Virus record (IMG/VR): IMGVR_UViG_3300050821_009413
Span: 81,490-145,489 of that record
Origin: a virus
Lineage: Duplodnaviria; Heunggongvirae; Uroviricota; Caudoviricetes
DNA length: 64,000 bases
Strand: one strand, 5' to 3'
The translations under genes and the position numbers were made by a program. Below, in pieces: positions 27,459-38,769 of the stretch (within the stretch, counting starts at the first letter, position 1; the number at the start of each line of letters is the position of its first letter). The notes below the pieces were generated by a model. It was given only the letters and a program-made list of their open reading frames with translations. It ran no database searches and had not been told where the DNA came from.

Positions 27459-27770
27459 TCAGGCATCGAGTATCTCCCTCAACGTTTGCGTGCTGTCCTT
27501 GCCGATGAAACGGTCATCAAGCCACCGCTCACCAGCCTTGGTGAGTTCGTATTCGTCGGCTTTCACCAAACCACCAGCCCGCAACAGGCCGATGATCCTT
27601 TTCACCGTATCGGGTCCGGCGATATGGATACGCTCAGCGATGTCATCGGGGTGGTGCGGCTCGTCGTAGATCGCTAACCGCCCCAACACCCGGGCCGCGA
27701 TAATAATGTCAGTGTCCATTGAGTACCTCCCGCACCTCGGCGAACGTATGTCGCCGCACAAACTTCCCAT
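27459..27770 (-). CDS. putative winged-helix DNA-binding protein
   Basis: VKRIIGLLRAGGLVKADEYELTKAGERWL resembles a MarR/PadR-like recognition helix and wing. Confidence 0.4.
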   Translation of the reverse strand: MGSLCGDIRSPRCGRYSMDTDIIIAARVLGRLAIYDEPHHPDDIAERIHIAGPDTVKRIIGLLRAGGLVKADEYELTKAGERWLDDRFIGKDSTQTLREILDA

Positions 27771-29295
27771 CCTCCCACACCGGATGTAGCAGGCTGGCGG
27801 CCTCCAATTCCGGGTCGGCCTTTTCGTAGAGGGTCAAGTCTCCCCGCCCGAAGACGATGCCGCCGCTCTCCTCGGTGCAGCGGTACACCGCCAGCCGGCC
27901 AGTGGCCGACTTCTTAGTGCCGTCATCAGTTACCGGGTCCTTGAACAAATCGATCCCCGTGCGAACCTCTTCACAATCCTCGGTGGAAGATTCGATCTCA
28001 CACCAGGTGGCTTTCATCGCCGACCCGAACGTGTCCCGAGTGTTCATCTGATACGTGAACGACCCGACACCCAGAATAACGGTGGTAGACGCAAAGCCCT
28101 GCCGCTCCAAGTTGGCAGTAATGGACCTGGCCCTATCCAACGTAATGGAGTCGCCGTAGATGACCCCGATATGTGGATCAAGTTCCTTGTAGCCGGCCTC
28201 GTTCACGCTGCCGCCGAAGACCTCCCACAGAAGGTTAACCACGCCGCATCTGGCCGCTCTGCCAGTACCGTCGCTCCACACTGTGATGTCAGAATTTCCG
28301 CACAGAATTTTCTCGGGGTCACCGGAATCGGGTCGGACGACCACCTTCCCATCGCGGGCCAGGATCTTATTCTTCAGCTTGGGCAGGTACTCGGTGAGCA
28401 CTCTCCACAAATCGTATGTGTCGGACACGATGGCGACGTTGCCGCTGGGGTACAGGTCCAGTAGGCGTTCAAACGTTTCGAACTCGCTGGACACCGCTGT
28501 ACCAGCCGACATAACACTGTGTTCAGTCGCGGGGATGCTTAAAGGGCCGGGGAGGGCATAGGTCGTATGGGTGTCAGGCGCAGCTTGGCCGTCCCCGGCT
28601 GGTCCATAATATCGGTCTATCCAATCAATAGCGACCAAAGAGTCAGTACCCCTGAAGGAAAGGAGATGAGCAGCCCCAGAAACCGCTGCAGTTTCATGAC
28701 TCGACATGCCGCGATAGCTAAAGTCGTGAAGCTGGTAGTCAACGTCGGCGAGACTCGCGCCCGTGCGGCGTGCCGCATCTTCGAGTACCTTCCTGTATTC
28801 GTGTGCGATGGTGGCGCTGGTGGAGGCCTGCCAGTACCCGGCGGACAGCCCGGTTTCAACGAAGTTGGTGAGCCACGCGAAGTCGTCGTGCGTGTTCTCC
28901 ACGGTGAAGGCCGGCACGCGGATCGGCACCAGCGTTCCTTCGGGCAGCGCGCAGAACCGCAACGGCAGGTAGCCGAGTTGGTGCAGGTCTTCGATGTGGG
29001 CGGTGCCGATAGCTTCGGCTGCGGCTTCGCCTAACACCCGCGCCACCCGGGCTTTGTATGTGGCTGCAATGTGCGATCGGTTACCGACGAAGAACCGTGT
29101 CCAATCTTCCATCAGGTAGCGCTGCAGGTATGCCTGCAACCCGAAGTGAACTATCTTGTTCACTCCTGGCATGCGGGACTTCCTGTTTGTGTAATTCGAA
29201 TACACCCGCACCGTGCCGGGCGGATACTGCCGCCGATGGTCAAGCTTGTAGGCATCGGTGCGGAAGAGGCAGGAAACAGGATCTTCGTAGGTCAC
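27709..29295 (-). CDS. nicotinamide phosphoribosyltransferase family protein (NAMPT/NadV; alternatively a Namat-type nicotinamide ADP-ribose transferase)
   Basis: The N-terminus TDAYKLDHRRQYPPGT matches the NAMPT start. YQLHDFSYRGMSSHETAAVSGAAHLLSFRGTDSL aligns with human NAMPT [34 protein letters not shown]. GVGSF is near the C-terminus. Confidence 0.8.
   Translation of the reverse strand: MTYEDPVSCLFRTDAYKLDHRRQYPPGTVRVYSNYTNRKSRMPGVNKIVHFGLQAYLQRYLMEDWTRFFVGNRSHIAATYKARVARVLGEAAAEAIGTAHIEDLHQLGYLPLRFCALPEGTLVPIRVPAFTVENTHDDFAWLTNFVETGLSAGYWQASTSATIAHEYRKVLEDAARRTGASLADVDYQLHDFSYRGMSSHETAAVSGAAHLLSFRGTDSLVAIDWIDRYYGPAGDGQAAPDTHTTYALPGPLSIPATEHSVMSAGTAVSSEFETFERLLDLYPSGNVAIVSDTYDLWRVLTEYLPKLKNKILARDGKVVVRPDSGDPEKILCGNSDITVWSDGTGRAARCGVVNLLWEVFGGSVNEAGYKELDPHIGVIYGDSITLDRARSITANLERQGFASTTVILGVGSFTYQMNTRDTFGSAMKATWCEIESSTEDCEEVRTGIDLFKDPVTDDGTKKSATGRLAVYRCTEESGGIVFGRGDLTLYEKADPELEAASLLHPVWEDGKFVRRHTFAEVREVLNGH
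28547..28600. repeat. GC-hairpin repeat copy lying in-frame inside the NAMPT-family ORF
   Basis: GCCGGGGAGGGC...TGGGTGTCAGGCG...GGCCGTCCCCGGC. It encodes GDGQAAPDTHTTYALPGP, an about 12-aa surplus relative to the KKYYG-TKDPVPGY region of human NAMPT. Confidence 0.5.
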
Positions 29296-29324
29296 GCTTC
29301 TCCTTTAAGGTGCTCCGGGGACGG

Positions 29325-36722: not shown

Positions 36723-37652
36723 TTAGTGCTGCCCGCCCTGGGGGACCACATAGGTTGGCTGATACGGGTTGAGGCCCTGCTTCACCGCCAACGCTTTTAG
36801 ATACGCGTCGATACTGCCGTACCCGTTGATCTCAGCCTGCTGCTGCAACGCTTTCTGCTGCGCCAGCTTCGTTTGAGCTTCAGCAGCGGCAACCTCAGCA
36901 TCCGCCTTCGCCCTGTCGGCGTTAGCTTCAGCGACGCCCTGGGCTTGCAAAGCCTGCGCACGCTGCACAGCAGCCTGCTGCGCCTCGATGGCGTTCTTCA
37001 AGTCGGGATTAACCGGAGTCGGCTTCAGCACAGTCACCTGGAAGTTCGAGAAGTACTCTGTGCCGTTGGTGCGGGCCTTAGACGCCAGCGGCAGCTGCTT
37101 GTCGATCTCCGTACGGAACTCGGTGCGAACCTCCTCGCTGTTCCAGATCTCCTGCCACGGATACTTCTGAGCCACACCGTTGAGCGTGTCCTGGAGAGGC
37201 TGGCCGATGACGTGATTGATGAGCGCTTTCCATCCGTCGCTCTCAGAGCCGTCGTCGTTGAGCGTCCCGTTGTATCCGGCGGCGAACTCTGAATAAAACT
37301 TCTTCAGCTTGTCGCAGTCCTGGGTCAGATCGAACGTCACCGACACTGGAACATCCATCTCCGCCGGGGCTTTAGCTGATGCGACAACCACGTACGGTCC
37401 CCTGTTGGGTTTCGCGTTGGGGTCGTTGCTGGCGTTCCACGCGATCTGGCGTGCGGGGAACTTGAACACCTCGTTGAAAGCTTCGTTCTTCGTCTCCGAA
37501 GGTTTGATGCACTCGGTGAGATTATGGTCGGCACCGGGGAACATCGACCCGTTCTGGACCACGGCCTGCTCAGCTGGACCCATGGCGTGATACGCGCATC
37601 CTGACAGACTGATCGCCGCGGCTGCGGCGATCGTCACTATCTTGGTTTTCAT
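36723..37652 (-). CDS. lipoprotein with Ala/Gln-rich coiled-coil C-terminus
   Basis: LSGC is a lipobox after an N-terminal signal sequence. The C-terminal AIEAQQAAVQRAQALQAQGVAEANADRAKADAEVAAAEAQ is coiled-coil-like (SPFH-like tail). Confidence 0.5.
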   Translation of the reverse strand: MKTKIVTIAAAAAISLSGCAYHAMGPAEQAVVQNGSMFPGADHNLTECIKPSETKNEAFNEVFKFPARQIAWNASNDPNAKPNRGPYVVVASAKAPAEMDVPVSVTFDLTQDCDKLKKFYSEFAAGYNGTLNDDGSESDGWKALINHVIGQPLQDTLNGVAQKYPWQEIWNSEEVRTEFRTEIDKQLPLASKARTNGTEYFSNFQVTVLKPTPVNPDLKNAIEAQQAAVQRAQALQAQGVAEANADRAKADAEVAAAEAQTKLAQQKALQQQAEINGYGSIDAYLKALAVKQGLNPYQPTYVVPQGGQH

Positions 37653-37972
37653 TTACTCTCTTTCGATTGAGGGGTAATCGTCCCCGGGTTGAGGATCGAC
37701 TGGGTGGTTCTCTCGATCAACTTCTCTGTGTATTCGTCGTCTTCGCGACGCAGCAACTTACGGGCGTGAGCGCGACGCTCACTCCTTGATAGCCACAGCT
37801 CCGGCTCATGTAAACCAGCTATACGGCGCTTGAGTCTGAAACGATCCACTGTCGCGTAGATCGTCCAGGAAATCCAGAGCACGACAACGATCATTAGTAC
37901 GAGACGGATCATCAGAACTCCTTGAGGTTGTTGATCATGTAGGTGAACACTGGTTGATGCGCGGTGGCGCAC
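37649..37972 (-). CDS. small membrane protein
   Basis: 107 aa with an N-terminal TM helix and an Arg-rich tail. Confidence 0.35.
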   Translation of the reverse strand: MRHRASTSVHLHDQQPQGVLMIRLVLMIVVVLWISWTIYATVDRFRLKRRIAGLHEPELWLSRSERRAHARKLLRREDDEYTEKLIERTTQSILNPGTITPQSKESK

Positions 37973-38769
37973 CCGACGCGGTTATGTCCAGGGTGTGTAT
38001 CGGTGGTGTAGATGTATCGGTAGTGGTCGCGGAGGTTCGGTGCGTTGCCGGAGAAAATGCCGTGCGTGATCCACAAGCCGAGTTGTTCTTTCGGCAGTCC
38101 GGTGGCTTGGGCGAGTCCCATGAATGTGCCGCCGCCGTCGCAAATGTCGTCCACTACTAGGTATTTTCCGGATTTGGGTAGTTTGTCGACCATTTTGATT
38201 CCGTTGATGCGTCCGGTTTCTTCGTCGCGGTCTTTGTCTGCCCGGTACATGTCGACGCCGAGGGCGGTCGCGGTTGTGGCTGCTCGTTCGACTGCGCCTT
38301 TGTCCGGCGCGATCACGGCGTGGTAGCCGTCGTAGCCGGCGCTGTTTTTTAGCGCTCGCTGCACCAGCGGAACTGGTGACAACTCGGTCAGCTTCCGTAG
38401 GTGGCGGTGAACGATCGGGCTGTGCGCATCAATCCCGATGACTTGTTGCGGGTTCATGGAGTTGATCAGTTGGGAGTAGGTGGCCACCCCGACGGGCTGC
38501 CCGGCCATCGGTCGGTCCGACCTGGCTGCCGGCAGGTACGGCAGGAACAGCATGAACGGTGCCTGCCGTTGGTGTGCCACGTCGGCGAACAACGCTGCCT
38601 GCACCAGGTCGTCGGCGGATCGGAACCGCACATCAGCGATCCACACCGCCGCGGGGTCGCGCACATCAGCCAGGTTGCGTAGGTGCCACTCGCCGCCCGG
38701 ATACTGAAACGGCTCCGCAGCACCATGAATGTAGTCGCCCGGAAGTTTCACCGAAAAATGTGTGGTCAC
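37912..38769 (-). CDS. ribose-phosphate pyrophosphokinase (Prs/PRPP synthetase) family protein; alternatively an Adps-type ADP-ribose pyrophosphate synthetase
   Basis: LPYLPAARSDR parallels Prs IPYFGYARQDR. VIAPDKGAVERA parallels VVSPDIGGVVRA. The PRPP-binding LVVDDICDGGGT parallels VLVDDMIDTGGT. ITHGIFSGNA parallels ATHPIFSGNA. Confidence 0.8.
   Translation of the reverse strand: MTTHFSVKLPGDYIHGAAEPFQYPGGEWHLRNLADVRDPAAVWIADVRFRSADDLVQAALFADVAHQRQAPFMLFLPYLPAARSDRPMAGQPVGVATYSQLINSMNPQQVIGIDAHSPIVHRHLRKLTELSPVPLVQRALKNSAGYDGYHAVIAPDKGAVERAATTATALGVDMYRADKDRDEETGRINGIKMVDKLPKSGKYLVVDDICDGGGTFMGLAQATGLPKEQLGLWITHGIFSGNAPNLRDHYRYIYTTDTHPGHNRVGCATAHQPVFTYMINNLKEF

Follow-up and report, generated by a model that had tools for sequence, protein, structure and literature searches.

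As a counter-defence of phages, the NAD+ reconstitution pathway 1 (NARP1) is well established. It pairs an ADP-ribose pyrophosphate synthetase of the Prs family (Adps) with a nicotinamide ADP-ribose transferase of the NAMPT fold (Namat), and is recognized operationally by a Namat gene within 10 genes of an Adps gene (Osterman et al.; PMC12774641), a spacing that holds for 97% of Adps-clade genes (Osterman et al.). In Bacillus phage SPbetaL1, the biochemical and structural reference, the two genes abut; in the actinophage DyoEdafos they belong to a compact operon of three genes, in which RyDEP, a glycosidase with an RyR domain, comes between them (Adps gp77, RyDEP gp78, Namat gp79), and the purified recombinant Adps and Namat of DyoEdafos reportedly turn ADP-ribose (ADPR), which RyDEP produces from 2'cADPR, into NAD+ in vitro (preprint 10.64898/2026.05.28.727677). 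A variant, NARP1-AP (Vibrio phage Gary type: Adps, Adpp, Namat), adds the Macro phosphatase Adpp, which turns ADPR-1''-phosphate into ADPR and so defeats aRES defence (preprint 10.64898/2026.01.28.702374). The second pathway, NARP2 (KVP40 and CcrColossus type), consists of Nampt and NMNAT, and no phage has been found with both NARP1 and NARP2 (Osterman et al.). Here we analyse a stretch of 64,000 nucleotides (the window; positions 81,490 to 145,489 of IMG/VR record IMGVR_UViG_3300050821_009413, Caudoviricetes), which carries on its minus strand a Namat-like gene (27709-29295) and an Adps-like gene (37912-38769) that very probably constitute a NARP1 pair in a split arrangement, not a classical salvage route. 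Since the pathway is established, another copy of it is unsurprising; what is unusual here is the split layout.

The pathway proposed for this phage would start where NADase-based immunity of the host (Thoeris, DSR, SIR2-HerA, SEFIR or a system like them) cleaves NAD+ into ADPR and nicotinamide. With ATP, the Prs-like enzyme would pyrophosphorylate ADPR to ADPR pyrophosphate (ADPR-PP); next, the NAMPT-like enzyme would join nicotinamide to ADPR-PP to give NAD+ directly, without a nicotinamide mononucleotide (NMN) intermediate and without NMNAT. For this phage we infer these enzymatic activities, together with the anti-defence role and the co-transcription of the genes, from the comparisons that follow. 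Both genes had been picked out by the original prediction, made from the letters alone, as NAMPT-family and Prs-family enzymes, and both are confirmed as open reading frames (ORFs) on the minus strand with family scores far beyond chance.

The 528-residue product of the Namat-like gene matches the Pfam families NAPRTase (E 1.8e-32) and NAMPT_N (E 1e-9), phrog_448 ('nicotinamide phosphoribosyl transferase'; E 3.5e-175) and the NCBIfam model NF006629 (475 bits, cut-off 405). Among all PDB sequences its top match is 9w5x/9w5w (E 2e-128, 432 bits), at twice the score reached against NAMPT structures (human NAMPT, 213 bits); 7yqo scores 182 bits. The 9w5x sequence is 100% identical to SPbetaL1 by tblastn, and is therefore the Namat whose structure is described in PMC12774641. 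The window protein is 61.4% identical to DyoEdafos Namat and 43-46% identical to SPbetaL1 Namat, and a MAFFT alignment with these two enzymes shows that it keeps all seven catalytic-core residues (D13, Y15, F189, R192, D215, R306 and D308 in SPbetaL1 numbering). That core is common to Namat and Nampt, and the distinction lies in a clamp helix, GS-X-phi-X-phi-X-phi-TRD, which is absent from NAMPT (PMC12774641). The window protein has GSFTYQMNTRD at this place, next to GSFTYQYNTRD in SPbetaL1, GSFTYQHNTRD in DyoEdafos (a difference from the window of one position, H for M) and GGGLMTADLDRD in the NARP2-type enzyme of CcrColossus (MAFFT alignment). The motif is present in 118 of the 120 closest homologues, and in one of the remaining two it is interrupted by an apparent intein. 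A second part of the clamp, a loop whose third residue (Arg, Lys or Tyr) gives a stacking contact, reads NRKSR exactly as in DyoEdafos, with R41 aligned to R40 of SPbetaL1. In all, the SPbetaL1 clamp residues R40, F392, T398, R399 and D400 are conserved. The adenine is stacked by the residues at motif positions 3 and 7, and the first of these is Phe in the window protein, as expected of an aromatic contact.

One homologue in this set merits separate mention. P0256 (771 aa, from a Logan contig of 9,356 bp; 68% identity) has its selectivity-clamp motif split by some 270 additional residues (GVGSF / C...HN / TYQYNTRD); judged by the residues at its boundaries, this insertion looks like an intein.

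The 285-residue product of the Adps-like gene matches phrog_619 ('ribose-phosphate pyrophosphokinase'; E 5.9e-73), and its scores against every Prs model lie below the cut-off: 90 bits for TIGR01251 (cut-off 113), at most 77 bits for the other NCBIfam Prs models (cut-offs 296-536), and 24.4 bits for Pfam Pribosyltran (cut-off 26.3). Known Adps proteins behave in the same way, with TIGR01251 scores of 106 bits for SPbetaL1, 82 for DyoEdafos and 98 for the Thalassavirus Rocket24, all below the cut-off; the window protein thus fails the Prs models as the validated Adps do, whose scores span 67-106 bits, and by this comparison it is probably not a bona fide phosphoribosyl pyrophosphate (PRPP) synthetase. 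It is 50.6% identical to DyoEdafos Adps over 269 aa and 56.6% identical to its homologue in Wigglewiggle, and only 23.7% identical to E. coli Prs. Its K179 aligns with the catalytic lysine of SPbetaL1 Adps, K162. Two patterns are common to all the Adps sequences including this one, namely K-x-R-[DN]-x-x-T-G-x-I in the flexible loop, in place of KRRPRANVSQV in Prs, and DD[IL][CS][DS][GFY]G..[TS]F, in place of DDMIDTGGT; the comparison sets a ten-member Adps alignment against a single Prs (E. coli), and the patterns are not a validated determinant. The PDB holds no Adps structure; its highest-scoring entry for this protein is an archaeal Prs (55 bits).

It had been proposed that profile hidden Markov models (HMMs) would tell Adps from Prs and Namat from NAMPT. 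This worked in so far as the Prs models rejected the 285-residue protein, and did not work for two other models. An HMM built from five non-actinophage Adps was dropped as an Adps/Prs test after the window protein scored 132 bits, E. coli Prs 112 and DyoEdafos Adps 108, and NF006629 does not separate Namat from Nampt, being passed by the SPbetaL1 and DyoEdafos enzymes and by the NARP2-type enzyme of CcrColossus alike. The Adps family is very divergent. Because the HMM did not discriminate, the putative membership of the protein in the Adps clade rests on DyoEdafos as the functional anchor, on synteny and on the shared loop motifs; the 50.6% identity to the DyoEdafos enzyme indirectly backs this placement.

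The synteny is consistent among the relatives examined, in all of which Adps and Namat genes are adjacent or one gene apart. Wigglewiggle, two IMG/VR contigs (L010 and L011) and three Logan contigs (L016-L018) have them abutting or overlapping, and a single gene lies between them in DyoEdafos (RyDEP), in L019/L020 (a Macro gene) and in the Myrna-like L012/L013 (an AAA ATPase). The 547 positions of phrog_12872 match the Prs-like protein at 15-221 and the NAMPT-like protein at 372-534, which suggests that fused Adps-Namat versions exist. With DyoEdafos the window shares both enzyme families and the actinophage clade; with SPbetaL1 it shares the catalytic residues and the five clamp residues of Namat named above, and the catalytic lysine of Adps. 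In Pseudomonas phage EM (L023), the gene at 1351-2208, labelled 'baseplate protein', aligns with Adps and stands one small ORF upstream of a Namat homologue; the label is probably wrong, and the sequence was counted as one of the Adps sequences in the alignment.

Classical salvage would use the same protein superfamilies differently: the Prs-like enzyme would make PRPP, the NAMPT-like enzyme would make NMN from it, and a host enzyme or a phage NMNAT encoded elsewhere would complete NAD+, as in NARP2 or an auxiliary metabolic route. With NARP2 the window does share an enzyme of the NAMPT fold and, presumably, the purpose of restoring NAD+. It differs in having a Prs-like partner and no detected NMNAT, a gene that the original prediction had also failed to recognize in the window: a tblastn search with the NMNAT/cytidylyltransferase of CcrColossus returned nothing below E 0.7 across the window, and among 50 ORFs of the window scanned with Pfam none matched CTP_transf_like or Nudix. 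(CcrColossus served as the NARP2 reference; the first 50 kb of KVP40 held neither nadV nor natV.) The NAMPT-like protein is 25-27% identical to that of CcrColossus and has the Namat clamp (F at position 3, R41) in place of the GGG motif found there. SPbetaL1 Adps, whose sub-cut-off Prs scores the window protein shares, yielded no product in a PRPP-synthetase assay; Nampt of the NARP2 clade is found in phages without Adps; and the orthologues of the window pair sit in Adps-Namat operons of compact form, of which one is biochemically active. The earlier leaning towards NARP1 chemistry is therefore upheld by the DyoEdafos and SPbetaL1 relatives, the Namat clamp, the low Prs scores and the adjacent orthologues, and we regard classical salvage as quite improbable.

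Several observations nevertheless weigh against NARP1. The Adps-like protein is, pairwise, only 26-28% identical to SPbetaL1 Adps, and the five-sequence Adps HMM gives overlapping scores (108-136 bits for actinophage Adps, 112 for E. coli Prs). Motif position 7 of the Namat-like protein is a non-aromatic Met, where SPbetaL1 has the adenine-stacking Y396; the single mutant Y396K lowers SPbetaL1 activity only modestly (PMC12774641), the 118 motif-bearing homologues have Y (85), H (22), M (6) or F (5) at this position, and the biochemically active DyoEdafos Namat has His. SPbetaL1 Namat keeps some PRPP-dependent NMN synthesis in vitro (PMC12774641), so some classical chemistry is possible. The search for NMNAT covers the 64-kb window, which is part of a contig at least 145 kb long. 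Finally, because 13 genes intervene, the pair falls outside the 10-gene rule, and the wide separation removes the operon argument for this genome.

That separation, an 8.6-kb interval with a Ter-like module inside it, had been called unusual, and the comparison with relatives, which have at most one intervening gene, bears this out. The gap measures 8,616 bp (29296-37911) and its 13 called genes all lie on the same strand as the pair. The gene order is identical in an ENA contig of 28 kb and partly so in a Logan contig, and the proteins are recorded on a JGI contig of 145,489 bp; because the order recurs in independent assemblies, the layout is not an assembly artefact. From the Adps side, the interval begins with a small ORF (37649-37912; 87 aa), which shares 1 bp of its start with the stop codon of Adps and has no Pfam match, followed by an SPFH/Band_7 protein (36723-37652; 309 aa; Pfam Band_7 E 3.3e-7, 31 bits, cut-off 23.6; phrog_200 E 3.4e-34) and by four small ORFs with overlapping starts and stops (35612-36646; 65, 89, 115 and 75 aa in this order), none with a Pfam match. 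A 174-aa protein with weak similarity to the Rv2179c-like 3'-5' exonucleases comes next (35091-35615; Pfam E 1.6e-5, 25.1 bits, cut-off 27). The remaining six genes encode a membrane protein of the DUF475/TerC family (33899-34987; 362 aa; Pfam DUF475 E 9.3e-93, TerC E 1.1e-13), a 165-aa protein (33405-33902), a TelA-family protein (32053-33393; 446 aa; Pfam TelA E 1e-19), a TerF-type vWA domain (31257-32006; 249 aa; Pfam vWA-TerF-like E 4.4e-41), a 376-aa protein (30082-31212) and a TerD-domain protein (29378-29983; 201 aa; Pfam TerD E 1.7e-58), the last directly upstream of the Namat gene with a gap of 82 bp. The 165-aa and 376-aa proteins have no family match in Pfam, PHROG or NCBIfam. All these genes, like the pair, are on the minus strand, and a search of the window for a RyDEP (RyR-domain) homologue, the gene that stands between the two enzymes in DyoEdafos, found none; the 13 genes in its place are unrelated.

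In this lineage the ancestral compact operon has probably opened up, so that 13 same-strand genes now stand between adps and namat; the core of the inserted block is the abbreviated Ter cassette (DUF475/TerC, TelA, vWA-TerF, TerD), and a Macro gene that is intra-operonic in a relative now lies 1.6 kb downstream of namat. The pair shows that a split NARP1 can function or, at the least, be maintained. Detectors based on proximity (10 genes for Namat, two genes for Macro) would miss this pair, and the published frequencies of NARP1 and NARP1-AP are thus lower bounds.

The genes of the four Ter families (TerD, TerC/DUF475, TelA and TerF-type vWA) all score above the Pfam cut-offs and cluster at 29378-34987, as in the abbreviated phage type; the phosphoribosyltransferase (PRTase)-HAD signal module of the complete Ter type has no counterpart in the window by tblastn with the PRTase and HAD proteins of Acinetobacter phage ME3. 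Abbreviated Ter cassettes are known in jumbo phages and have been interpreted as modules for superinfection exclusion or for stress (Iyer et al. 2021, PMC7824862). We see similar ones in CcrColossus, RHph_Y65, FKP3 and ME3, where the order is TelA, vWA, DUF475, TerD; in the window the order is DUF475, x, TelA, vWA, x, TerD, the cassette lies inside a NARP1 gene pair, and the host is actinobacterial. Most likely the cassette is an independent accessory module or insertion, serving membrane protection or superinfection exclusion.

There are hints of a closer tie. The order of Adps followed by Ter genes is conserved in a second, diverged phage contig (L029, a 9.1-kb JGI contig), which carries Adps (55% identity), a small ORF, the Rv2179c-like gene (75%), DUF475 (82%), an extra gene, the 165-aa gene (70%), TelA (89%) and vWA (75%) before it ends. 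NAD or ADPR genes stand beside Ter genes in four other phage lineages. CcrColossus has its NMNAT-NAMPT pair about 8 kb beyond the Ter cassette; Acinetobacter phage ME3 has NadE and a Macro gene just upstream of the cassette and PRTase-HAD-PRTase just downstream; and Klebsiella phage FKP3 carries, 550 bp upstream of DUF475, a Macro gene of the Poa1p type, whose product is 49% identical to that of the Macro gene beside the NARP1 genes of Pakpunaviruses. A bacterial contig, moreover, reads TerD-DUF475-PRTase_3-HAD-PRTase_3, and in bacteria the phosphoribosyltransferases and the HAD phosphatase of Ter systems are thought to make a nucleoside-like signal (PMC7824862). The placement of the cassette might on these grounds be no accident: phage Ter modules could be functionally tied to ADPR and NAD+ metabolism, their ligand could be derived for instance from ADPR or PRPP, and Adps and Namat (with Macro) could replace the PRTase-HAD-PRTase module. 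We consider this unlikely, and treat the adjacency as a hypothesis only, since it concerns five lineages and carries no correction for the clustering of accessory genes.

A stronger version, in which the Prs-like and NAMPT-like enzymes would chiefly supply or recycle a metabolite for the Ter cassette that they flank, and would not mainly counter NADases, draws on the same conserved order, the same neighbours and the same bacterial contig. It is opposed by the Adps-Namat orthologues themselves, nearly all of which, the validated ones included, lack nearby Ter genes, and by Rhizobium phage RHph_Y65, whose Ter cassette lacks an NAD gene over a distance of about 13 kb. In large phages accessory genes cluster in any case, the sample comprises five lineages without statistics, and the Ter-associated PRTases belong to PRTase_3, another family than Prs and NAMPT. 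We judge it highly improbable, and keep to NARP1 with an independent Ter module as the preferred reading; the order of Adps and Ter genes in two diverged phages, together with the recurrent NAD and ADPR neighbours, does give a testable lead on the ligand and role of Ter. In a search for a second phage with Ter genes directly upstream of namat, the protein collection contained no Namat homologue of more than 69% identity. For the DUF475 protein, IMG/VR yielded no close relatives, and genome contigs gave only uninformative alphaproteobacterial matches of about 40%; the nearest cellular homologues are from Streptomyces and Frankia (about 47-49% identity). Three labels in the FKP3 record (L031) are probably wrong on sequence grounds: the 'phosphatase' at 10959-11432 is the Poa1p-like Macro protein, and the 'tail protein' at 18464-19258 and the 'HNH endonuclease' at about 19365-19871 match the window's vWA-TerF and TerD proteins.

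A gene that the original prediction did not mention lies downstream of the pair and encodes a Macro-domain protein (25624-26082, minus strand; 152 aa; Pfam Macro E 1.5e-14). It is separated from namat by 1.6 kb and about six small ORFs, and so lies outside the two-gene distance used for calling NARP1-AP. The orthologue in L019/L020, 63% identical, lies within that distance, exactly between Adps and Namat, in the NARP1-AP layout. As in NARP1-AP, a Macro gene thus accompanies both enzymes in the window, and as in the Pakpunaviruses it is found downstream of Namat; the window protein is therefore a possible third NARP1 component, an Adpp-like ADPR-1''-phosphate phosphatase. By sequence, however, it is nearer to DarG than to Poa1p. 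In the PDB it comes closest to 5m31 and 5m3i (E about 1e-38, 133-136 bits), which we take to be the DarG macrodomains of Thermus aquaticus and M. tuberculosis (PDB names 'Appr-1-p processing domain protein' and 'RNase III inhibitor'), while Poa1p (6lfq), which is an ADPR-1''-phosphate phosphatase, gives a weak match of about 40 residues (E 4.5e-6, 29-31 bits). Alignment to 5m31 and 5m3i shows that the lysine of the PTK motif, presumably the catalytic lysine of DarG and TARG1, is conserved. The Macro gene of the Thalassavirus (Rocket24) NARP1 operon encodes a protein only 24% identical. It may thus be that the Macro protein is, instead of or besides an Adpp, an antidote that strips ADP-ribose from DNA modified by DarT-type toxins of the host, its nearness to namat being incidental. 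That it is such an antidote and not an Adpp has close to an even chance in our estimate, though slightly less: the intra-operonic orthologue argues against it, as do several cases in which Macro subfamilies of this class have ADPR-1''-phosphate phosphatase activity in common. Because the orthologue is intra-operonic and the sequence is nearest to 5m31 and 5m3i, we leave the role between an Adpp-like phosphatase and a DarG-like remover. A DarG-like Macro protein orthologous to a NARP1-operon gene raises the question whether the operon Macros of actinophages are ADPR-1''-phosphate phosphatases, DNA de-ADP-ribosylases, or both. Slightly further downstream lies a calcineurin-like metallophosphoesterase (24258-25064, minus strand; Pfam E 2.2e-11), whose homologues in L019 (42% identity) and in Myrna-like phages (44%) stand about 3 kb away from the NARP1 genes.

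The window has a G+C content of about 59%, and almost all genes from about 39.9 kb down to about 22 kb are on the minus strand. Immediately upstream of the Adps gene is a Pth2-type peptidyl-tRNA hydrolase of the archaeal and eukaryotic type (38766-39113, minus strand; Pfam PTH2 E 6.1e-30; TIGR00283 99.7 bits, cut-off 82), which, with a stop that overlaps the start of Adps by 4 bp, is the upstream neighbour in the same gene chain. Between 39113 and 27459 every gene is on one strand, mostly with start/stop overlaps of 1-4 bp; the widest gaps measure 103, 98, 82 and 76 bp, and the coding strand carries no convincing terminator. A sigma-70 promoter scan of 24000-41000, crude for an actinophage, found 0 sites where 5.0 were expected, and terminator-like sites in the same interval show no enrichment (21 against 15.7), those few that lie on the coding strand being weak (3-4 G-C pairs). 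The empty promoter scan and the weak terminators thus give no positive sign of internal transcription units, and the chain from 39113 to 27459 fits co-transcription.

The source is a large phage (at least 145 kb) of a mycolic-acid actinobacterium. The nearest relatives of both target proteins are genes of Mycobacterium phages, Gordonia phages and prophages, and the window contains five tRNA genes, an endolysin, Ku, RtcB, a protein like gp82 of L5, and a weak cutinase or PE-PPE-like gene that may be LysB-like. A megablast search with 27000-39500 against 50,697 phage records found nothing; the phage is therefore without a close sequenced relative, and the comparison was made at the protein level.

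Several further genes of the window can be recorded. Just upstream of Pth2 and Adps, a 150-aa protein (39437-39889, minus strand) matches Pfam Ion_trans (40.9 bits, cut-off 25) and contains, by eye, an S4-like segment, LRILRIARFAHLMRHL; it looks like a stand-alone voltage-sensor domain, and together with the SPFH/Band_7 and Ter genes it would lend the region a theme of membranes and ions. Five tRNA genes in an array (four Leu, one Ser; 684-1153), a PNKP-type HAD phosphatase domain (57032-57574) and RtcB (59792-61000; E 2.7e-112), all on the minus strand, together resemble a set for tRNA repair and so suggest an attack of the host on tRNAs. A paralogue array at 50236-56365 (minus strand) comprises three amidoligase-like genes (phrog_22302/phrog_2443) interleaved with two genes weakly similar to glutamine-fructose-6-phosphate aminotransferase (phrog_25883; phrog_4736 E about 1e-4), and cysteine clusters abound in its translations; at 1844-2905 there is an R2K ATP-grasp gene. 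Within the phage genome there is also a transposase-like gene (19569-21079, minus strand; phrog_4285 E 1.7e-83) followed by a 168-aa ORF, and the minus strand encodes, in addition, the Ku-domain protein (46411-47328; E 1.3e-32) and a DUF932 protein (42886-43953; E 6.6e-50).

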